A stretch of 64,000 bases of DNA, taken from contig CBCTTQ010000007.1 in assembly GCA_965149945.1 (NCBI GenBank), positions 1,645 to 65,644 of the forward strand, read 5' to 3'. Each line of letters starts with the position of its first letter. Position 1 is the first letter of the stretch. The DNA is from an uncultured Peptococcaceae bacterium (lineage in GTDB: Bacteria > Bacillota > Dehalobacteriia > UBA4068 > UBA4997). This document shows positions 35,258-59,855 of the stretch, one piece after another. Below the pieces are notes generated by a model. It saw nothing but the letters and a program-made list of their open reading frames with translations. It was not told the DNA's origin and did not search any database. A program made the position numbers and the translations under genes.

Positions 35258-36472
35258 TTATTTAACACCTTTACTTCCTTTGGCGCCTCCATTGGCAAAT
35301 CCGGCCAGAATATTTGTATCAAAAGAGAAATTATGACTTTCTTTGATTCGCTGTCGTTTCAACGCCAGCTGAATCAATTCATCCATCAATTCCGTAAAAT
35401 TCATTCCCGTGGCTTCCCACAAATAAAAAGACAAAGAACCGGGAATGGTGTTGACTTCATTAACATAGATTTGGTTTTGATCCACATCTAAAATCATATC
35501 CACGCGACAAACACCGCTACCGTCCAAGGCGATGAAACTGCGTTTTGCTAAATCCCGCATCGCCGCGCTCATTTCTTCCGAAAGATCAGCGGGAATTTGC
35601 CGACGGCTGCCACTCATTCCTTTAGAGCCCTTAGCACCGCCGCTGCCTTTCGTTCCCTTAGAACCACCCATATATTTATCCGCATAAGTCAAAATTTCGC
35701 TGCTGGTAATGGGTTCCTCGCAGACAGAAGTTTTGGCTTTTCCATTACCGCCCAAAACAGAACAGTTGATCTCTCTCATATTGGTGACACAATGTTCCAC
35801 CAAAAGCCGACCGGTAAAAGTAGCCGCGTAATCCAACGCCGCCGCCAAACCATCACGGTCTTCCGCTTTGCTGATGCCTACACTGGAACCTAAATTGGCA
35901 GGTTTTACAATTACAGGATACCCCAATTTTCTTTCTGCTTCGTTCAAAGTTTCTTCCCGTTCAGAATACCATTCCTCCGCGGTAAAGAAAATACCGTCGA
36001 TAACCGGTACCCCCGCGCCGCGCAGCACAGCTTTCATCATAACTTTATCCATGCCCACCGCTGCGCCCAAAACACCGGGACCGGTATAGGGAATATTCAT
36101 CAATTCCAAAAGTCCCTGCAAACAACCGTCTTCTCCATGGGCGCCGTGCATCACAGGCACCATAACATCAATGGCAATTTCCTGTTCTTTGCCAAAAAAG
36201 CCTTTTTTGGGGATGATTAATTTATGTTCCCCGCGATTGGCGGTCATACTCACCTGCTGACATTGCTTCAGCAAATTTTCCAAAGCGGCGTAATTACTCA
36301 CTTCTTTCAAAGCTTCACCGGTATACCACAATCCCTTTTTGGTAATAAAAATGGGAACTACTTCGTATTTTTCCGTATCTAAAGCAGCCATTGCTTGACA
36401 AGCAGAAATAATGGCAATTTCATGTTCCACCGAAGGGCCGCCGAAAATGACTCCTAATCTGATTTTTTGCAT
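35258..36472 (-). CDS. ddl: D-alanine--D-alanine ligase with an unusual Gly/Lys-rich omega-loop insertion
   Basis: ATP-grasp Ddl: MQKIRLGVIFGGPSVEHEI...KY[MGGSKGTKGSGGAKGSKGMSGSRRQ]IPADL, plus a Gly/Lys-rich C-terminal tail; start set at MQKIRLG because GGAGAGGA sits 5 nt upstream. Confidence 0.85.
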   Translation of the reverse strand: MQKIRLGVIFGGPSVEHEIAIISACQAMAALDTEKYEVVPIFITKKGLWYTGEALKEVSNYAALENLLKQCQQVSMTANRGEHKLIIPKKGFFGKEQEIAIDVMVPVMHGAHGEDGCLQGLLELMNIPYTGPGVLGAAVGMDKVMMKAVLRGAGVPVIDGIFFTAEEWYSEREETLNEAERKLGYPVIVKPANLGSSVGISKAEDRDGLAAALDYAATFTGRLLVEHCVTNMREINCSVLGGNGKAKTSVCEEPITSSEILTYADKYMGGSKGTKGSGGAKGSKGMSGSRRQIPADLSEEMSAAMRDLAKRSFIALDGSGVCRVDMILDVDQNQIYVNEVNTIPGSLSFYLWEATGMNFTELMDELIQLALKRQRIKESHNFSFDTNILAGFANGGAKGSKGVK

Positions 36473-36496
36473 AATCGTCCTCTCCATCTCTCTTCA

Positions 36497-38092
36497 TTAT
36501 AAATAAGTATCGGGCAAATCGTTTTCAAACAAAACATAATCCCCTGCTTTTACCATAGAACGCATTTTTTTATTGGCATCAGCCAGATTTTCCGCGATAT
36601 AATAATTTTCCGCAGGCAGTTTTGCTTCTTGGATGCCGTCAATCAAGGGCTGACTGTGCTTTTTACCCACAATAATGACATAATCACATGATGCCGCACA
36701 TTTCATGGCAAAAGCCTTGTTTTGCGCGTATTCTTCCGCTCCCAGTTCTACCATACCGGGGGTAATGATAATCTTTCGACCGCCGGGCATTTTGGAGAGC
36801 ACCTCCAACGCCATGGCAGAACCTACCGGATTGGAATTAAACGCGTCATCAATAATAGTAAACTTCCCGGCATTTTTCAACACCAAGCGGTGCGGCACCG
36901 GAGGCACCGCCGCCACAGCACGAGCAATAGTGGACAAGTCCATTCCCAAATCCACCGCCACCGCTGTAGCTGCCAAGATGTTGTAAATATTGTGCTTCCC
37001 TAAAAGCTGCGTGCGCATCGCCACAGAAGCGCCCTCTTTGCTCCGCAGTATAAACCGCATTCCCTGTGCCGAGAAGCCGATTTCTTCAGCCCAGTAATCC
37101 ACCGCGGTTCCGTCTTTTGTTGTTTTTTCCAAACCATAAGTACGGAGTCTCGCCCGTACCCGCCCGATGTTTTTTCGAATTTGCTCGTCGTCTAAATTTA
37201 AAACCGCCAGCCCGTCTTCCGGCAAACTATCGATCAATTCAAATTTGGTTGCGGCAACCGTTTCAATATTGCCAAAAGTTTCCAAATGCTGTGGACCGAT
37301 AGCGGTTAAAATTCCGATTTTCGGCTGCACCAAATCACACAATTCTTTGATATCACCTTTTTGCCGAGCTCCCATTTCTGCCACAAACACTTCGTGAATG
37401 GGTTTCAAACTGTTACGAATTGTCAGCGTAATCCCCATGGGAGTATTATAACTGTCCGGTGTCACCAAAGTATGCTTTTCTTCGGAAAGAATCCGTCCTA
37501 AAATAAATTTACTGCTGGTTTTGCCGTAACTACCCGTAATCCCGATAGTCACTAAATGAGGCATCTCCCGAATAATACGCTTAGCGTCATTGATAAATCC
37601 TTGATTAATATGCGTTTCTACCGGACGCATAATTCCCGCGGCCAACCACTGAATAAACGGACAACAAAAAGCAAAGAGCCCTGTTAAAGCAATACCCCAG
37701 CGCTGACCGAAAATCAAACAAAGCCCGGCTGCCGCGCCCAAAATCAGCGTCAGAACCAAATCACAAGCATACAATCTCATCGCCCGTTTGGTAAAAACTA
37801 ACGCCTTTTTTTCCGGAGGCCGATGCCAAGAAAGATTCAATCCCGCAAACAGCACCATGGCAACCACCGGTACAACCAAACCGTCCGCCAACCAAGAAAG
37901 TACCAGTAAAATCACAAATACCAGCAAATCCCGTTTCAGCAGATTTTCCGAAAATCGTAACTTCAGCCAGCGCCAATATCGTTCCGGTCGATAGCTGTTT
38001 TGCTGCATCATATGCAGCTGCTGCACCAAACGCCGCGACAAATAAACCAGCCAAAGAGCAAAGGCTACAAGATAAAAGACCAATTCAAACAT
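36497..38092 (-). CDS. Mur-ligase family protein, MurF-like, with an N-terminal multi-pass membrane domain
   Basis: Residues 1-170 form about four hydrophobic helices. A Mur ligase central domain follows (VTIGITGSYGKTSSK P-loop), then a C-terminal domain. The gene sits immediately upstream of ddl (9-nt gap). Confidence 0.7.
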   Translation of the reverse strand: MFELVFYLVAFALWLVYLSRRLVQQLHMMQQNSYRPERYWRWLKLRFSENLLKRDLLVFVILLVLSWLADGLVVPVVAMVLFAGLNLSWHRPPEKKALVFTKRAMRLYACDLVLTLILGAAAGLCLIFGQRWGIALTGLFAFCCPFIQWLAAGIMRPVETHINQGFINDAKRIIREMPHLVTIGITGSYGKTSSKFILGRILSEEKHTLVTPDSYNTPMGITLTIRNSLKPIHEVFVAEMGARQKGDIKELCDLVQPKIGILTAIGPQHLETFGNIETVAATKFELIDSLPEDGLAVLNLDDEQIRKNIGRVRARLRTYGLEKTTKDGTAVDYWAEEIGFSAQGMRFILRSKEGASVAMRTQLLGKHNIYNILAATAVAVDLGMDLSTIARAVAAVPPVPHRLVLKNAGKFTIIDDAFNSNPVGSAMALEVLSKMPGGRKIIITPGMVELGAEEYAQNKAFAMKCAASCDYVIIVGKKHSQPLIDGIQEAKLPAENYYIAENLADANKKMRSMVKAGDYVLFENDLPDTYL

Positions 38093-38160
38093 TTCTTACC
38101 TCCGAACCACTTGATGTTGTCTTTTCGGTGATGGATTTTCCGACAGGAAAATCGCTGTAC

Positions 38161-38952
38161 TTACTCCGCGGTGGGGGTTTTCCCCATTTCCGGCTGCAAA
38201 AAACTGTCCACAACCGCCAAAAAATTGGGTAACTGTTCCAGATACGCATAATGAGCGCTGTTTTTTCGCACTACCAAACCGGCATCCCGCATCAGTTTTT
38301 CCATTATCTGTCCGTCTTCCAATGGTGTCGTCGTATCATTCTCGCCCCAATACAACAGAGTAGGAGCTTGAATCTTGGGCAACAATTCTTTTAAATCCTC
38401 GTTGACTACCTTCACAAAGGTGCCCCGCATTTCTTCAGAAGCCTGCTGGTAATCGGTACTACCCCGTTTTCCCCGCAGATTTGTCAAAAGTTCCTCTTTT
38501 CGTTTGCGCAGTCCCGGCAAACTCAACGCCTTCTTGGCAGCCTTGTAAGAATACACCTTGGCATAATAGTCCAATCCGCGTTTGGGCTTTAATCCGGCAC
38601 AACCAGTCAAAATCATTTTGTGAGGGATCTCTTCTGCCCCCAGACGCAAAGAAAGGCGTCCGCCGAAAGAATGAGCGATCAAAATAGGGCGCACGATATT
38701 TTCTCGGGCAAAAAACGCCTTCAGCATCTCCTTATATTCCACTGTGCTCCAGGCTTCTCGGGGTTCATCACTTTCTCCGTGTCCGGGCAAATCAAAATTA
38801 TACAGATGAAATCGCCCCTCTAAATGTTCCGCTACCGGACGCATTGTTTCGTGAGAACAGCCCCATCCATGGAGCAACACCACCGGCCAGCCCTGACCGG
38901 ATTCATAATATACAATCTGTAAGCCCTGATAAGGGAAGATTTTCTTTTCCAT
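38161..38952 (-). CDS. alpha/beta hydrolase fold protein
   Basis: HGWGCSHE and an AHSFGG nucleophile elbow. Confidence 0.8.
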   Translation of the reverse strand: MEKKIFPYQGLQIVYYESGQGWPVVLLHGWGCSHETMRPVAEHLEGRFHLYNFDLPGHGESDEPREAWSTVEYKEMLKAFFARENIVRPILIAHSFGGRLSLRLGAEEIPHKMILTGCAGLKPKRGLDYYAKVYSYKAAKKALSLPGLRKRKEELLTNLRGKRGSTDYQQASEEMRGTFVKVVNEDLKELLPKIQAPTLLYWGENDTTTPLEDGQIMEKLMRDAGLVVRKNSAHYAYLEQLPNFLAVVDSFLQPEMGKTPTAE

Positions 38953-39169: not shown

Positions 39170-40597
39170 CTATTGTGCTTCAGACGATTCTGTCGCGGTA
39201 TTTTCAGATAAACCGTCCATTCCGTTTAAATGCGCCTGCCAAAGCAGTTCCCCTACAGAAACCACTTGGTAACCTTGTTCATTCAACCAAGACAAAATTT
39301 CCGGCAACACTTTCAAATCCACTTTTTTGCCTTCATGCATCAGGATAATCTGACCATCTCCGGCATGAGCCTTGACATTATTAATAATCGTATTGGGATC
39401 GCTCACCTTCCAATCTAATGTATCGATGTCCCACATACAGGAAATCATTCCGTATTCTTGATTAAGGGATTTCACTGTATCGTTAATGTTACCATAGGGA
39501 CAGCGCATCAAATACGGGCGATAACCAACCATTTCCTTAAAGGAAGAAGAAGATTTTTCTAAATCATCCCGAATAATCTCAGCGCTGGTTCGGTTGAGAT
39601 TTTTGTGATTCCAAGTATGGGTTGCCAGTTCATTACCGCTTTCCACGATTTTCTGAACCGAATCGGGATCATTTTTCATATTCGCTCCCAACATATAAAA
39701 TGTCGCCGTGGCATTATGTTCTTTCAGGATTTTCAAATATTCATCAATGGTGCTGGCGCTGGGACCATCATCAAAGGAAAGGGCGATATATTTTTTACCG
39801 GTAGGAGCACTGAACACACTGCCCCGTTTTATATAATTTGGCTGCAAGGTTCCTTTTGCTACCTTCAACAAATAGGCATGCTTTTCCAAATTTTCTTTTC
39901 CGCCGATTCCCTTTACCAGCGCGTCATATTCAGAACGAGGAACCATTACCTTTTCCCCGCTGCCATTGAGCACATCTTCACCTACATAAACTTTTTCTCG
40001 CCAAAAATCTTCATTGTAAACAGCCATGGTCCCTTCCGCCGCAACAGCAGTCTCCGGGGCATCGTTTCCCAAAGAGCGCACCAGCCAAACGGCCAAAAAG
40101 ACCACTGTCAAAACAAGCAACAACAAAATCAGACAAGGCAGTATTTTTAAACGACGACGGCGATGTTTCGAACGCGGGGAACGAATCCCACTGTTTTTCG
40201 CAGTCCGCAAGTTGTTTCGAGAAACGCTCCGAGAAACTGTTCGACGGCTGCTCATCGGCTTCGGAACAGCCGTTTGAGTTTCCCAAAAAGAAGCGCTGAA
40301 AGACTTCGTTTCCGTTTTGTTTCGATCCGCGGCAAACTCGCCAGATCCATTTTGTTTCGCGCTATGTTCCTCGCCAAAAACACTGTATCGTTGATGTACC
40401 GGTCGAGCGGCAGAGGAATCGTAATTTTTTTCTTCATTTCTCAGCTTCGTGGAAAAAGAAGGAAACTGAGAATCTTTGCGCGGCCCAACCGATCGCGTCT
40501 CGTGAAAATTTTCCGTTTCCCGCATTCTGCCTCTTAAGTTTCTTTCCGGTTTCAACTTCTCCTGTTGAATATTATTTTTGCGTCTATTTCCAAACAT
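39170..40597 (-). CDS. polysaccharide deacetylase (NodB-domain) with a long basic disordered N-terminal region and a single TM
   Basis: C-terminal NodB motifs (ALSFDDGP, HTWNH, LMHE). The N-terminal ~150 aa are Arg/Ser-rich low complexity, followed by a TM helix; the start is uncertain (Met at aa 25 has the better RBS). Confidence 0.8.
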   Translation of the reverse strand: MFGNRRKNNIQQEKLKPERNLRGRMRETENFHETRSVGPRKDSQFPSFSTKLRNEEKNYDSSAARPVHQRYSVFGEEHSAKQNGSGEFAADRNKTETKSFSASFWETQTAVPKPMSSRRTVSRSVSRNNLRTAKNSGIRSPRSKHRRRRLKILPCLILLLLVLTVVFLAVWLVRSLGNDAPETAVAAEGTMAVYNEDFWREKVYVGEDVLNGSGEKVMVPRSEYDALVKGIGGKENLEKHAYLLKVAKGTLQPNYIKRGSVFSAPTGKKYIALSFDDGPSASTIDEYLKILKEHNATATFYMLGANMKNDPDSVQKIVESGNELATHTWNHKNLNRTSAEIIRDDLEKSSSSFKEMVGYRPYLMRCPYGNINDTVKSLNQEYGMISCMWDIDTLDWKVSDPNTIINNVKAHAGDGQIILMHEGKKVDLKVLPEILSWLNEQGYQVVSVGELLWQAHLNGMDGLSENTATESSEAQ

Positions 40598-49978: not shown

Positions 49979-51454
49979 TCAAACTTTACCGTTATAGGTT
50001 TTATCACCAAGACAATACAGCGGTAAATCTAATGTGCTAAGAGAATTTCTGGTATTCACAGCAGCCGTATAAAGATAACGACTTCCATTTACCTGCGGCC
50101 AAAACTCTCTGTTGTATTGGCGCATATTCGTAACTTTCACTGTATTATAGAAACCCATGAAAAATCTATCCTGACTATTAGAAGTAATATTAAACGCACT
50201 TGCCCATGCAGGCGTACCAGTTTCACAAGCGCTTAAAAATACAAACTTCCAATTACCGTTGTAACCATCAATCGTTGTCCGATTCAAACTCCAAACGATA
50301 TCGTCTTTAGTATCTTTCGCACATATCACATCATTATCACCGTGTCCATAAAACATAAATCCATAAGCGTCGCTCTTCTTCAAAAAGCTCATAATTGTGT
50401 TTTTCAGTGAGTATTCCTTTGATGTTGTTCCTGTAGCAGAATATCCTAATCTCTTAAACGCGGCTTTTGCCAAGGACACATTACTGGAACTTTCGCTCAT
50501 ATAACCATCGCCATATGCTCCAGCAGAAAGCATCATGACATTACCTCCAATTACCTCACCAGTTACAGCATCCACATACACAAACTGATTACCGCCATTC
50601 AAAGAAATATTATAAGCCAATCTTACAAAATCTGCGGGTTCATAGGGACCGCCTTCTCTCCAGTAATAATTGGGCTGCACATAACATAATTCTGCTCCAT
50701 CCACAGTTGCTTGCAATTTTTCAATCACTGGCTGAGCTGCGACAATAGCTTCTTCTTTGCTGATTTCAGCGGTTGTAGTATTCGCTTCCAAATCAAATGT
50801 ACTCAAAAACGCCAAAGAAGCATCTTTTCTAGCAATGGTAATATTCACACCATCACATTCATTCACTAAACCATTTTCTAAAACTTGTCGATATGCCAAT
50901 AACCAATAATCAACAGTTACCTTTTCAGATTTAACTAATTTGTATTCCCCTTCCAGTTCCAACATTTCTAAAGTTTGTTCACCGGTAGCAATATATTGCT
51001 CTTCGCTTGTTGAAAAAGTTTCTTCCCATGTAGGCGCAAGCAAATCAGCATCAGCATGATAGATATCAACAATTTGATTATTGGAATCAACAGAAATATA
51101 AGATTCATCATCAATGATGTATTTGGTATAAATCTCATTGGTATAACCTATTACATCTTTCATTGTTTCTGCTTTTTTCACATTGTCTACAGAGATTCCC
51201 AATGTTTCCAAATCATCTTGGGTATCCTTATCCAAAACCGTTGTACTAATTCCAGATACTGTCGCACTTTTCAAAAGTATATCTTGTATATCACCATTAT
51301 TTTGTTCTGATACCGGAATAGGCTTCGCTTGCGCGATGACACTTTCCTTTTGCCCTACCACATCGGATGTTTCCGCGAAAGCACTCACGCCGGAAGTCAT
51401 GAATACCGCAAAAACTAAAAACAACGCCAACACTTTGGACACATTCTTTTTCAT
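49979..51454 (-). CDS. secreted caspase-fold cysteine peptidase-like protein (clan CD; CHAT/C11-like) with a PepSY-like N-terminal region
   Basis: Signal peptide MKKNVSKVLALFLVFAVFMTSGVSAFA. A putative His-Cys dyad sits in beta-strand contexts FMFYGHGDN and KFVFLSACETG, spaced about 40 aa apart. Confidence 0.55.
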   Translation of the reverse strand: MKKNVSKVLALFLVFAVFMTSGVSAFAETSDVVGQKESVIAQAKPIPVSEQNNGDIQDILLKSATVSGISTTVLDKDTQDDLETLGISVDNVKKAETMKDVIGYTNEIYTKYIIDDESYISVDSNNQIVDIYHADADLLAPTWEETFSTSEEQYIATGEQTLEMLELEGEYKLVKSEKVTVDYWLLAYRQVLENGLVNECDGVNITIARKDASLAFLSTFDLEANTTTAEISKEEAIVAAQPVIEKLQATVDGAELCYVQPNYYWREGGPYEPADFVRLAYNISLNGGNQFVYVDAVTGEVIGGNVMMLSAGAYGDGYMSESSSNVSLAKAAFKRLGYSATGTTSKEYSLKNTIMSFLKKSDAYGFMFYGHGDNDVICAKDTKDDIVWSLNRTTIDGYNGNWKFVFLSACETGTPAWASAFNITSNSQDRFFMGFYNTVKVTNMRQYNREFWPQVNGSRYLYTAAVNTRNSLSTLDLPLYCLGDKTYNGKV

Positions 51455-56117: not shown

Positions 56118-57290
56118 TCAGTCTTTTTTTTCCAAAAATCCACTACGCGAAGGCAAAGCAAGGATTTTTTCATAAAAGGCCAGTGTGGCTTCAGCAGTTT
56201 TTTGCCAATCAAAACGAGCGCTCCACGCAAGCCCTTTCTGTCCCATCTGTCGCAACAGTTTCGGATCATTCAGCGTCTCCACCAAAACTCTTGTCATCGA
56301 ATCGGTATCCATGGCGTCAAAATAGCAAGCCGCATCACCGCCTGTTTCTCGGAGAGAAGAATTATCCGCCACCAATACAGGGCAACCACAAGCCATCGCC
56401 TCTAAAACAGGCAAACCGAATCCTTCATAAAAAGAAGGATATACCAAGGCGGATGCACCGCCATAAAAGTACGGCAACAAATTCCCAGGTACAAACCCCG
56501 GAAACACCACCCGTTCACCAATTCCCAAGGATGTTGCCAATTCTGTCAAAGCAGCGGTTTCTCTTCCGCAACGTCCGGGACAAACCAGCAGATACGGCGT
56601 GTGCCATTCTGATTGTGCCCGAGCAAAAGCCGTCAACAAACCGGACAAATTTTTCCGACGGCTAAAACCACCCACATACAGCAAATAGGCTCCGTCAATG
56701 CCGTATTGACGCCGTAACACCCCTTTGCAAGTTTCAGAAGCAGTCAACGCGTAAATCGGCTCTGCCGCCTCATAAATAACGGCAATTCGATCTTCCGGGT
56801 ATTTAAAAAACCGCAGAATATCCCTTTTGGTATGGTTGGAGACCGCAATAATTCCGTCGCTTTTGCCTATAATGGCAGGCATATCATGCAGAAATTCTTT
56901 GCGATAACCCCGCCCCACCGATTCAGGATACACATAAGGAATCAAATCGTGAATAGTCACAATGGTGCGACAAGGCGCCGCCAAAGGCAGGCCAATGCCG
57001 TTTTGCGGCACATGATAGAGAACTGCTTGTTGTTCTTTCAGCCAACAAGGCAAAAATTCTTCTTCGCAATAACGGGGATTCTCCTGAATACGGGTACATC
57101 TCGCGCTATCCGTAAAATCCAAGTCCTCGTATTCCTGCCCCGGCAGAAAAAAAGAGATTTCCTCACCGACCAACTTCCGCAAATGTACTGCCAATTGATA
57201 GGTATAGGTGCCGATGCCCGTGCCGCGATAATGAATGGCGCCCCTGGCATCCAAGGCAATTCTGCCCCCCTTTATTCCGTTTTTTGCCAT
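56118..57290 (-). CDS. glycosyltransferase family 4 (GT-B)
   Basis: 390 aa with the C-terminal EGFGLPVLEAMACGCPV motif. Confidence 0.85.
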   Translation of the reverse strand: MAKNGIKGGRIALDARGAIHYRGTGIGTYTYQLAVHLRKLVGEEISFFLPGQEYEDLDFTDSARCTRIQENPRYCEEEFLPCWLKEQQAVLYHVPQNGIGLPLAAPCRTIVTIHDLIPYVYPESVGRGYRKEFLHDMPAIIGKSDGIIAVSNHTKRDILRFFKYPEDRIAVIYEAAEPIYALTASETCKGVLRRQYGIDGAYLLYVGGFSRRKNLSGLLTAFARAQSEWHTPYLLVCPGRCGRETAALTELATSLGIGERVVFPGFVPGNLLPYFYGGASALVYPSFYEGFGLPVLEAMACGCPVLVADNSSLRETGGDAACYFDAMDTDSMTRVLVETLNDPKLLRQMGQKGLAWSARFDWQKTAEATLAFYEKILALPSRSGFLEKKD

Positions 57291-58747
57291 CTGCGATCCC
57301 CTCCGTCAGCAACCTGTTCATAGCGCACAGTGAAATATAGTTCCTCTTGCAACACCTGCCTTTCCGTCATCGCAAGATGGACAACCAACCCCGAGGGACT
57401 AACCAAACAATCATCCCCTAAAATCGATATCGGTTGTTCTGCCGAAACAGCCGCCGCTTCCATTGCCATCATCTCCGAATCCGCCCTTTCGGCATCTTCG
57501 TCTGCCGCCAAACGTTGTGAAAACTCCGCCGAAACCTGTTCCAAATCAGGATGGCGCCGTTCTTCCTCTTTCGGCGGCAAAGCGGTTTCTTGGGCCGCAG
57601 ACAAGACATCCGTATTTTCAAAGGTTCCTTGCTCCGCTTCTTCCGCCGATAGGGATTCTCTCACATTACTCGCAGCCAAAACATCCTGCAATTCCGCTGC
57701 CGACGATCGGTCTTTTTCGGAAAGCTCCGCTGCCGTCGAGACAAAATCGCCTTCTCTTGCTTCTACTTTTTCCGATTGTAAATTTTTGCAAATTTCTTTT
57801 CCTGATTGTTCATGCGAAATGGATGAACCGGCCGCGACGGGAATCGGCTCATCCGGTTGAGGATCCAACAAAGGGCGATGTTCCTTTTCAGCTATTCGGT
57901 TCCGCTTTTGCAATTTCAACAAGGCATGGCTTTTTAATGTTCCCAAATCAGTCACAGGAGATTCTGTTTCTTCCGCTTCTGCCTTTGTCTCGGTATCCGC
58001 GCGCGCCTTCTCAGAAGTTGTTACAGAGTCGGCTTTTGCTGATCGAGCATCGGAATTAAAAGATTCTCCCCCTATTCCAACAGAAGAATCTTTTTCTTCG
58101 GCCTTACGCGCTGATTTCTCTGTTTCGCTTTGAGAAACCGCTTCGGCAACAGCATAACGCGCATCCTCTGCCTGCGGAGAAACAGACAATTCTTCCTTCT
58201 CCAATGACGGTGAAGAAGGTATTGAAACAACAGATTCTGTCGATCCATATTCAGCTAAAACACGCTGTACCTCAGAACTTGGCTGATACGAGGAAGAAGA
58301 TGGCGACTCAGATTTTTCTTTTGAAAAAGACATCGATTCAGCAACATTCGATTCGGCGATCGTGACAGGCGAAATCTCCTCACAATCCGAAATGATAATT
58401 TTGCCACTGAATTCCAACACATAGGGTGACAAAACTTCTAATTCCTCAGCTTGTAATTCCGGCCGCACCCATTTTTTCTCTGTTTGTCGCCAATCGTTCG
58501 ACAGTTCCAGCTTCAGAGGCAATGTAACTCTGGTTTTATATAATTTTTGACCTTCCAGCCCCCAATAGTCCAAATGCAAGGTATAACGGCCGCTCAGCCA
58601 AATCTGTCCGCCATGGCACAGCAAATCGTCAAAGAAAAGCTTTGACGAAAATCCTTCAATTTTTCGCACCCCCATGGCGTCTTTTGCTAAAAACACCGTT
58701 TGTTTCAAGGGAAGCGCAACTTTTTGTCGATCATGTCCAGTGGTCAT
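57272..58747 (-). CDS. hypothetical protein with a structured N-terminal domain and a long acidic Ser/Glu/Ala-rich low-complexity region
   Basis: 491 aa; residues ~130-430 are low complexity; 19-nt overlap with the downstream GT4 gene. Confidence 0.5.
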   Translation of the reverse strand: MTTGHDRQKVALPLKQTVFLAKDAMGVRKIEGFSSKLFFDDLLCHGGQIWLSGRYTLHLDYWGLEGQKLYKTRVTLPLKLELSNDWRQTEKKWVRPELQAEELEVLSPYVLEFSGKIIISDCEEISPVTIAESNVAESMSFSKEKSESPSSSSYQPSSEVQRVLAEYGSTESVVSIPSSPSLEKEELSVSPQAEDARYAVAEAVSQSETEKSARKAEEKDSSVGIGGESFNSDARSAKADSVTTSEKARADTETKAEAEETESPVTDLGTLKSHALLKLQKRNRIAEKEHRPLLDPQPDEPIPVAAGSSISHEQSGKEICKNLQSEKVEAREGDFVSTAAELSEKDRSSAAELQDVLAASNVRESLSAEEAEQGTFENTDVLSAAQETALPPKEEERRHPDLEQVSAEFSQRLAADEDAERADSEMMAMEAAAVSAEQPISILGDDCLVSPSGLVVHLAMTERQVLQEELYFTVRYEQVADGGDRRWQKTE

Positions 58748-58814: not shown

Positions 58815-59855
58815 TTATTTTTCTGATTCATCTACCATTTGCCAAATTTCCGAAAAGACTTTCCGGCAAACTTCATCCACCTCTTCAAAATTCATCGCCT
58901 TCACATAATATTCTTCCAGCTCATTATGGAGCCGTTTCGCCGCGGCAATACTGCCAACAGCCTCCTCCAAAAAATCCTCTTCCGGCAACACAGTTTCCTC
59001 CAAAGGCGCCAGCTCTACCAAAACATCCCCCGTGAAAGGTTCCAGCTCCGGTACTGAAGCATCCACCGCAGCAAAACCGATCTGCGGCAATACCACCATT
59101 TCATAACATTCCGGCGCCAAAGTACTATGATAAATATCAATATCATGACCACGCAAAACAGCGGCTTCTTCAATGCGTCGCAAAAAAGAATCAATATCAT
59201 AGCGATTCCCGCCGCGCAGTAAAAAACGCTTCTTCATACCGGCACAAAGAGACTGACGATATCCCACCCAGCCCCGCGGTGTAATAGCGGCAGCAAAAAA
59301 ATGAGAAACTTTTGCCAAATCCTCATGAAAAATTTCTCCGATCACATCGTTTGCCAAAGCCGTAACCCGTTTTTCTCCAACGGAATGGGTTTCCGCGTAA
59401 TCATCATAAGCATTGCGATAAGCAGCCAATTTTTCGTAAGCGTCTTGAAAATAGCAGGAAATTTCTTCCGTCAGACGAATAATTTCCTGTTTGTTTTCCC
59501 GTAACAAATCGCGGTTCCAATGATCACCCAAATTAATAATCTCATCCACTGCGCCTGGATAAACCGGATCGACCAAATGAGGTGAAGTCCCATCCACCAC
59601 CGCAATTTTTAAAGAAGGCACCACTACTCCATCCAAGGAATCATTGTCAGAAGAACACTGCCAAACTTCTACATCATAACCGCGTTCCGTCAGATTAAAG
59701 GCGATTTTTTTCATTAATGTACTTTTCCCTGTACCAGGACCCCCCTTCAATACAAAAATTCGTTCCATTCCTCTCAGACCATCAGCATAAAAAGAATAAA
59801 ACCCCGAAGGCGTATTGCTGCCCGGATATTTATGAATCATGCTTCCCTTTCTCAT
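58815..59855 (-). CDS. uncharacterized P-loop NTPase
   Basis: Walker A GGPGTGKST near the N-terminus, Walker B-like VVDGTSPH, GAGGTG RBS. Confidence 0.6.
   Translation of the reverse strand: MRKGSMIHKYPGSNTPSGFYSFYADGLRGMERIFVLKGGPGTGKSTLMKKIAFNLTERGYDVEVWQCSSDNDSLDGVVVPSLKIAVVDGTSPHLVDPVYPGAVDEIINLGDHWNRDLLRENKQEIIRLTEEISCYFQDAYEKLAAYRNAYDDYAETHSVGEKRVTALANDVIGEIFHEDLAKVSHFFAAAITPRGWVGYRQSLCAGMKKRFLLRGGNRYDIDSFLRRIEEAAVLRGHDIDIYHSTLAPECYEMVVLPQIGFAAVDASVPELEPFTGDVLVELAPLEETVLPEEDFLEEAVGSIAAAKRLHNELEEYYVKAMNFEEVDEVCRKVFSEIWQMVDESEK

Follow-up and report, generated by a model that had tools for sequence, protein, structure and literature searches.

The window analysed here is a 64,000-nucleotide stretch of DNA from an uncultured Peptococcaceae bacterium, and the gene of interest within it, which we refer to as TM-MurF, encodes a 531-residue protein of the Mur ligase family at 36497..38092 on the minus strand, as defined by its open reading frame (ORF), by matches in Pfam, NCBIfam and the Protein Data Bank (PDB), and by an AlphaFold2 (AF2) model. 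It is situated between the genes for an alpha/beta hydrolase and a D-Ala-D-Ala ligase (Ddl), and it joins a MurF-like catalytic core to an N-terminal domain made of membrane helices. The start codon is the ATG at 38092, preceded by a GGAGG ribosome-binding site that can be read directly from the sequence (38099..38103, minus strand, 6 nucleotides (nt) 5' of the ATG), and it is sound since, in the alignment, the N-terminus of the protein agrees with those of close homologs. Around the operon, neither Rfam families nor promoter or terminator signals above background were found. The AF2 model of the full protein, obtained with 107 homologs, is a confident one (pLDDT 94.7, pTM 0.87).

Pfam recognizes two domains in TM-MurF and nothing else, namely Mur_ligase_M at residues 185-379 (PF08245, E=1e-42) and Mur_ligase_C at residues 402-522 (PF02875, E=3e-12), and the same pair is present in 21 of 21 diverse homologs, as befits the Mur ligase superfamily. 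The central ATP-binding domain (residues 181-380; 36953..37552, minus strand), as delimited by the Pfam match, the alignment with MurF and invariant columns, carries the P-loop, E239, H269 (within QHLE), K283, N299/D301 and the motif LLGxHNxxN. In particular, the aligned counterpart of K283 in E. coli MurF is a Lys within the segment AKAKGEIF, and in LLGxHNxxN the residues G365 and N371 are invariant across the 107 homologs, with H367 and N368 at least 90% conserved. The C-terminal domain (residues 402-522; 36527..36889, minus strand), supported by Mur_ligase_C and again by invariant columns, contributes R402, DDAFNSNP (415-422) and TPGMVELG (444-451), and is followed directly by ENDLPD (523-528), a family-specific motif as judged from the alignment by eye. 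The motifs that match E. coli and P. aeruginosa MurF residue for residue are kept in the 107 homologs. What is more, the best NCBIfam model is murF itself (TIGR01143, 222.3 bits), with the MurE, MurC and MurD models reaching at most 94 bits, and a Foldseek search of the PDB with the TM-MurF model returns MurF structures at all of ranks 1-9, with E-values down to 5e-27.

The likeness to MurF ends where the core begins. Namely, the alignment to TIGR01143 spans only positions 69-402 of the 418 in the profile, with position 69 meeting residue 175 of the query, and in the alignment with E. coli MurF (1gg4; E=2.6e-40) nothing before residue 96 of the latter is matched; PDB MurF chains in general align only from their residue ~84-119 on. 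For this reason, the N-domain of MurF must be called truly absent and not just diverged. Mur ligase N-domain models find no match in residues 1-175 of TM-MurF, nor in the 21 diverse homologs, and since the catalytic motifs are kept at the same time, TM-MurF is best described, at the level of sequence, as an intact MurF-type ligase core whose N-domain has been replaced. Canonical MurF (TIGR01143; 1gg4, 4cvk, 4qf5, 3zl8) thus has central and C-terminal domains like those of TM-MurF, and shares with it the P-loop, the Glu, the His, the equivalent of Lys283, DDxxNxNP and GxMxELG. It differs in possessing a soluble N-domain of ~80 residues that holds the uridine diphosphate (UDP) moiety, where TM-MurF has ~175 residues with five transmembrane (TM) helices; in its KGSR-type ending, where TM-MurF ends in ENDLPD(T)Y; and in lacking the constant pairing with an alpha/beta hydrolase.

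The N-terminal membrane domain (residues 1-175; 37568..38092, minus strand) is defined by hydropathy, AF2 models and columns invariant in 107 sequences. Kyte-Doolittle analysis gives hydrophobic blocks at residues 1-20, 54-90 and 107-154, all three of which are kept across the 107 homologs, and AF2 splits them into five helices of membrane length (2-31, 53-68, 73-88, 102-127 and 133-175), with short amphipathic helices at 36-50. Lysine and arginine together average 6.1 residues in the loop 23-52 and 4.8 in the loop 90-103, as compared to 0.1-0.3 in the two short loops, and from this positive-inside pattern the predicted topology is one that leaves the N-terminus outside and places both long loops, like the catalytic domains, on the cytoplasmic side. 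The helices are conserved in hydrophobicity only, and the invariant positions belong to the loops on the cytoplasmic side and to the linker helix: Q30, Y34 and W42 in the loop motif LHMxQQNSYRNERYxRWLK; K95, T101, R103 and R106 in the loop motif EKKxLVxTxRAKRLY; and P157 and E159 in the linker-helix motif PxExxIN. In other words, conservation in this domain centres on basic and aromatic residues of two such loops and of that helix. The domain is not represented by any curated model. Pfam searches of residues 1-175 yield only noise and no family, even at E<=10, and when the domain is modelled on its own (pLDDT 96.6), Foldseek retrieves no similar fold from the PDB (best E=1.2). The first-pass annotation, made from the sequence alone, had read this ORF as a Mur ligase with a membrane domain of ~170 residues in place of its N-domain and with the P-loop GITGSYGKTS ahead of the C-terminal domain, and both points stand: residues 1-175 are membrane, the MurF N-domain is missing, the P-loop occupies residues 183-192, and the central and C-terminal domains are intact. 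Its estimate of about four TM helices was right as to the presence of membrane helices, which hydropathy and AF2 both give, and wrong as to their number, which is five.

A protein search with TM-MurF returns thousands of relatives. Among the best 120 of these, whose sources are uncultured Clostridia and the named Bacilli Pseudalkalibacillus, Alkalicoccus and Sinobaca, almost every sequence is full-length (95-100% coverage, 44-99% identity, 515-563 residues). A profile of the N-terminal membrane domain, searched against 1.84 billion representatives clustered at 50% identity, matches 2,074 clusters at E<=1e-3 and 1,058 at E<=1e-10; in these matches the membrane domain is always N-terminal, and the full-length ones are Mur ligases of ~515-560 residues. 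Short matches with the membrane domain alone were treated as fragments and not as free-standing proteins, the one that was checked (P0138) being a fragment with a frameshift, on a contig of 1.5 kb. Misassembly or a false fusion can be rejected as well, because the architecture recurs in ~2,000 clusters and folds as a single confident model. Species-representative genomes and metagenomes give at least 600 matches each, with the full-length ones listed at 37-47% identity. If one goes by record titles, in which single labels of metagenome-assembled genomes can be wrong, the matches listed include Clostridia (Oscillospiraceae, Lachnospiraceae, Ruminiclostridium, Christensenella), Peptococcaceae, Tissierellia, Bacilli (Gracilibacillus, Aquibacillus), Bacteroidales (Muribaculaceae, Alistipes, Rikenellaceae, Barnesiella, Duncaniella), Poribacteria, Synergistaceae, Balneolales and Chitinophagales; those from Bacteroidales and Poribacteria are numerous and lie on long contigs. 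Among PLSDB plasmids there is no full-length TM-MurF, only canonical MurF at ~65% coverage, and we thus see no sign of plasmid carriage. Taken as a whole, the architecture is a large cross-phylum family of ~2,000 clusters and not the rarity that had been implied at first. It had also been said that the idea of an unusual MurF would fall if this form were the standard murF of the clade and, given a family this large and spanning phyla, that is partly the case: the architecture is widespread.

The two neighbouring genes bear on function. Downstream lies the gene for the Ddl, a protein of 409 residues (35258..36487, minus strand; NCBIfam NF002528) belonging to a distinct subfamily, whose annotated start is 9 nt 3' of the TM-MurF stop codon. 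The 9-nt spacing originally noted is thereby confirmed, with the proviso that the true start may be Met6, five codons later, which would make the gap 24 nt, since Ddl sequences in the PDB align from Met6; GGAGAGG stands upstream of that codon. The protein passes NF002528 with 337 bits against a cut-off of 262, every Van-type ligase model stays far below its cut-off, and the omega-loop Lys-Tyr (DKY) of D-Ala-D-Ala ligases is kept, so that by sequence it belongs among these ligases. Directly after the DKY, a 16-residue insert rich in Gly, Ser and Lys (GGSKGTKGSGGAKGSKG) is found, followed by an SKGM motif, and the C-terminal tail is of similar composition (GGAKGSKGVK). A variable Gly/Ser/Lys insert together with a conserved (S/A)KGM is common to ~65 of the Ddl proteins encoded beside TM-MurF genes, and the PDB DdlA homologs are without it.

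These features are relevant to the proposal, one of those raised at the outset, that TM-MurF is a specialised paralog dedicated to the spore cortex or to an alternative stem-peptide terminus such as D-Ala-D-Ser or D-Ala-D-Lac, as in vancomycin resistance. The modified omega-loop of the partner Ddl would fit such a role, as would the nature of the window organism, a Clostridia-type Firmicute with a PdaB-like deacetylase gene two genes upstream, and the VanX-like peptidase found beside the operon in Bacilli. That said, the Ddl keeps its Lys-Tyr and falls far under every Van ligase cut-off, and genes for VanH, VanX and VanT are absent beside the operon in the window, which together argue against a resistance-type terminus and leave the idea of an alternative stem peptide with little to recommend it. 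As for the spore cortex, the same three genes occur, by record titles, in Bacteroidales, Poribacteria and Synergistaceae, groups that are not known to form spores, and on these phyletic grounds we rule this role out. The proposal as a whole strikes us as extremely improbable.

Upstream of TM-MurF lies the gene for a cytosolic alpha/beta hydrolase of 263 residues (38161..38952, minus strand; Pfam Abhydrolase_1/6). Its triad S95/D206/H234 is identical in 71 of 71 sequences, and in the same set the HGWG oxyanion motif and the lid motif GSxDY (G164-S165-x-D167-Y168) are 94-100% conserved, with G164 at 94%. The hydrolase is therefore predicted to be catalytically intact; the proteins closest to it are generic esterases and lipases.

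How constant this arrangement is was assessed by locating neighbours with tblastn in 165 non-redundant loci, where the counts refer to loci with enough room on the given side. A hydrolase homolog directly precedes TM-MurF, in the same orientation, in 124 of 137 loci, a Ddl homolog is directly downstream in 119 of 140 (85%), and the full trio, in the order abh-TM-MurF-ddl, is present in 98 of the 123 loci with room on both sides. The most constant partner of TM-MurF is the hydrolase, which the first-pass annotation had overlooked. The gaps within the trio are mostly below 50 nt, and overlaps of 4 or 8 nt are frequent. A permuted order, ddl-abh-TM-MurF, is seen in four metagenome loci (L125, L136, L151 and L167), and in one Poribacteria locus a UPF0236-family gene sits between the hydrolase and TM-MurF (L041 4490-5809).

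In Clostridia the trio occupies a fixed housekeeping neighbourhood, (ispA)-comM-(deacetylase)-abh-murF-ddl-dprA-topA-trmFO-xerC-hslVU-rpsB-tsf, and the window agrees with this order over its annotated part, between comM (42.2 kb) and hslU (26.9 kb). The deacetylase of the window (39170..40597, minus strand) is a polysaccharide deacetylase with a PdaB/PgdA-like domain at residues 265-452, preceded by a basic, low-complexity N-terminal region of ~150 residues and then one hydrophobic helix; a shorter deacetylase is present at the same place, between comM and the hydrolase, in some other Clostridia loci (L004, L087). This location of murF and ddl together, outside the division and cell wall (dcw) cluster of a Firmicute, resembles the ddl-murF operon of B. 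subtilis. In comparison with an operon of that type, the trio has its order reversed (murF, then ddl), a third gene for the hydrolase, a membrane-integral MurF, and a Ddl with an extended omega-loop.

Other lineages tie the trio to cell wall synthesis more directly. Most importantly, in four Poribacteria loci the order is mraW-ftsL-ftsI-murE-[abh-TM-MurF-ddl]-mraY-murD-ftsW, i.e. the trio sits inside the dcw cluster at the usual slot of murF, and no canonical murF is found in the dcw cluster of these four loci. In one metagenome locus (L159) a MurE gene follows TM-MurF after 10 nt (E=5e-82 to PDB MurE), and in locus L102 genes for a penicillin-binding protein (PBP) and FtsW/RodA stand just upstream of the trio. 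The TM-MurF family is thus associated in the genome with peptidoglycan precursor genes, be it with ddl or through the murE-mraY slot. As a separate observation, a CN_hydrolase gene adjoins the module in two unrelated loci (L102 2741-3544 and L032 8178-9017), in the former directly upstream of the hydrolase and after the PBP and FtsW/RodA genes. Downstream of the trio in two Bacilli loci comes a gene for a VanX-like Peptidase_M15 D-Ala-D-Ala dipeptidase (Pseudalkalibacillus, L001 12976-15965; Aquibacillus, L021 8909-9631), with a class B PBP following too in Pseudalkalibacillus, which suggests a larger D-Ala-D-Ala-centred module in Bacilli. No second MurF-like gene was found in the ~2 Mb of flanks around the 165 loci.

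Could TM-MurF then be an accessory paralog working beside a canonical MurF? On this account, it would serve in repair or salvage, using its dedicated Ddl to restore the pentapeptide on undecaprenyl-pyrophosphate-linked MurNAc-tripeptide, that is, on lipid I or II lacking D-Ala-D-Ala. The exchange of the UDP-binding N-domain for a membrane domain, with invariant basic and aromatic residues at the cytoplasmic face of the membrane, is in keeping with such a substrate; moreover, the family is patchy within Bacilli, with only a few genera among the matches listed, and the Bacilli context with its M15 dipeptidase and PBP looks accessory. There is also a precedent in MurT, a Mur-ligase-family enzyme that has no UDP-binding N-domain and acts, together with a partner enzyme, on the membrane-bound substrate lipid II. 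MurT is soluble, however, with a DUF1727 C-domain and the glutaminase GatD as its partner, and has no part in D-Ala-D-Ala chemistry. The lack of a UDP-binding N-domain is common to MurT and TM-MurF, whereas their similarity in sequence is very weak, TM-MurF scoring 28.8 bits against the MurT model NF045635, whose cut-off is 800. The titles of PMC6085368 and PMC3266927 agree with the action of MurT/GatD on lipid II. Against an accessory role, the presence of the trio at the dcw murF slot in Poribacteria, with canonical murF missing there, points to the main pathway, and we consider the accessory role unlikely.

A more distant alternative is that TM-MurF is an amide ligase outside precursor synthesis altogether, which would attach the Ddl product to some other membrane-associated acceptor or build a peptide polymer, with the hydrolase as the matching degrading or transfer enzyme. 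Analogues exist in the membrane-bound poly-gamma-glutamate synthase PgsB/PgsC, in which a membrane-associated amide ligase of the Mur ligase family (PgsB/CapB) works with a small multi-TM component (PgsC), and in cyanophycin synthetase, which combines ATP-grasp and Mur-ligase modules. The set formed by an ATP-grasp ligase, a Mur-type ligase and a serine hydrolase does resemble the sets used for peptide polymers, and the failure to reach the murF cut-off, a C-terminal motif unlike that of canonical MurF and the altered omega-loop of the Ddl could all be read in the same direction. However, MurF is a much nearer relative of TM-MurF than cyanophycin synthetase (TIGR02068, 47.5 bits against a cut-off of 850) or MurT is; PgsB/CapB models are absent among the NCBIfam matches of TM-MurF at E<=0.01, and neither CapC nor any other family is found among the Pfam matches of its N-terminal domain. 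In other words, these scans detect no relation to PgsB/CapB-PgsC, the genomic contexts differ, and TM-MurF is specifically MurF-like. Finally, the dcw, murE-adjacent and PBP-FtsW contexts are those of wall synthesis, and the partner passes the Ddl cut-off. We consider this alternative very unlikely.

On balance, the reading that we prefer, and that we regard as fairly probable, is that TM-MurF is a membrane-anchored MurF, the D-Ala-D-Ala-adding enzyme of mainstream peptidoglycan precursor synthesis, because of its MurF-type core, its pairing with Ddl, its place in the murF slot of Poribacteria and its adjacency to murE or to PBP and FtsW genes. Among the options offered by the first-pass annotation, a membrane-tethered D-Ala-D-Ala-adding enzyme is accordingly the best supported, by MurF-like motifs, by the match in both sequence and structure, by linkage to ddl and by the Poribacteria slot. 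In such a scheme, the co-encoded Ddl would make D-Ala-D-Ala, and TM-MurF would use ATP to activate the carboxylate of residue 3 of the MurNAc-tripeptide precursor, by the acyl-phosphate chemistry of Mur ligases, and would join the dipeptide to it at the membrane's inner face, beside MraY. The conserved cytoplasmic loops might take over from the lost N-domain in gripping the substrate by its nucleotide or pyrophosphate end. The core chemistry is probably ordinary, the role is probably in mainstream wall synthesis, and TM-MurF may be the sole MurF of the window organism.

Several points weigh against a membrane-anchored MurF of the main pathway. TM-MurF lacks the very N-domain that defines MurF, and its score lies under the curated cut-off of TIGR01143 (222.3 versus 288.6 bits). 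The ENDLPD motif and the modified omega-loop of the Ddl may leave room for another substrate, and the M15 dipeptidase and PBP context in Bacilli appears accessory and not housekeeping. What is more, no MurF reaction or step of precursor synthesis is known to require an alpha/beta (serine) hydrolase. The loss of the N-domain itself could fit either of two arrangements, a new hold on UDP-MurNAc-tripeptide beside MraY or a switch to a lipid-linked tripeptide. In the more radical version of the latter, the D-Ala-D-Ala step as such would have moved to the membrane, so that lipid I or II is completed after MraY: the loops would hold undecaprenyl-pyrophosphate-linked MurNAc-tripeptide, and the hydrolase and the loop-extended Ddl would form with TM-MurF an obligatory three-protein machine. 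This we deem decidedly unlikely.

A few further observations concern the rest of the window. Within its 64 kb there is no dcw cluster, no second Mur ligase and no second Ddl; the region at 56-63 kb, whose ORF sizes resembled those of a dcw cluster, turned out to hold tilS-ftsH, a glycosyltransferase and unknown ORFs. Two unrelated ORFs of 491 residues each, at 49979..51454 and 57272..58747 (both minus strand), have no Pfam match, and a 346-residue ORF at 58815..59855 (minus strand) has weak matches to STAND/NACHT-type NTPases; all three are near ftsH and tilS and may belong to a variable island. GC skew is about -0.2 in every 2-kb bin of the window save 44-46 kb, and nearly all long ORFs lie on the minus strand, which fits a single replichore whose genes share one orientation.

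Mur ligases are generally regarded as soluble enzymes of the cytoplasm, and it has long been asked whether they act at the membrane, in a complex with MraY and MurG (for example PMC10214165, PMC6420597). In the literature that we searched, we found no description of a membrane-anchored, integral MurF, and a widespread membrane-integral MurF with a hydrolase partner appears to be undescribed there; the architecture itself is not unique to the window genome. The source annotations of relatives read MurF or "Mur ligase family protein", with one close homolog carrying only the latter, and since the family falls under the murF cut-off and bears such generic names, automated reconstructions might score genomes with the trio as lacking MurF. 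From a practical standpoint, MurF and Ddl are antibiotic targets, and a divergent form in abundant gut anaerobes may differ in its sensitivity to inhibitors.

The TM-MurF family thus provides a natural and widespread integral-membrane MurF without the usual UDP-handle domain, one that in Poribacteria holds the murF position of the dcw cluster, and as such it bears on whether Mur ligases operate at the membrane. It raises the questions of whether the D-Ala-D-Ala step can take place on a membrane-tethered enzyme or on a lipid-linked substrate, and of what part a conserved serine hydrolase plays in precursor synthesis. Were the lipid-linked step to be true, it would mean that a re-ordered precursor pathway is common to many gut Clostridia, Bacteroidales and Poribacteria.

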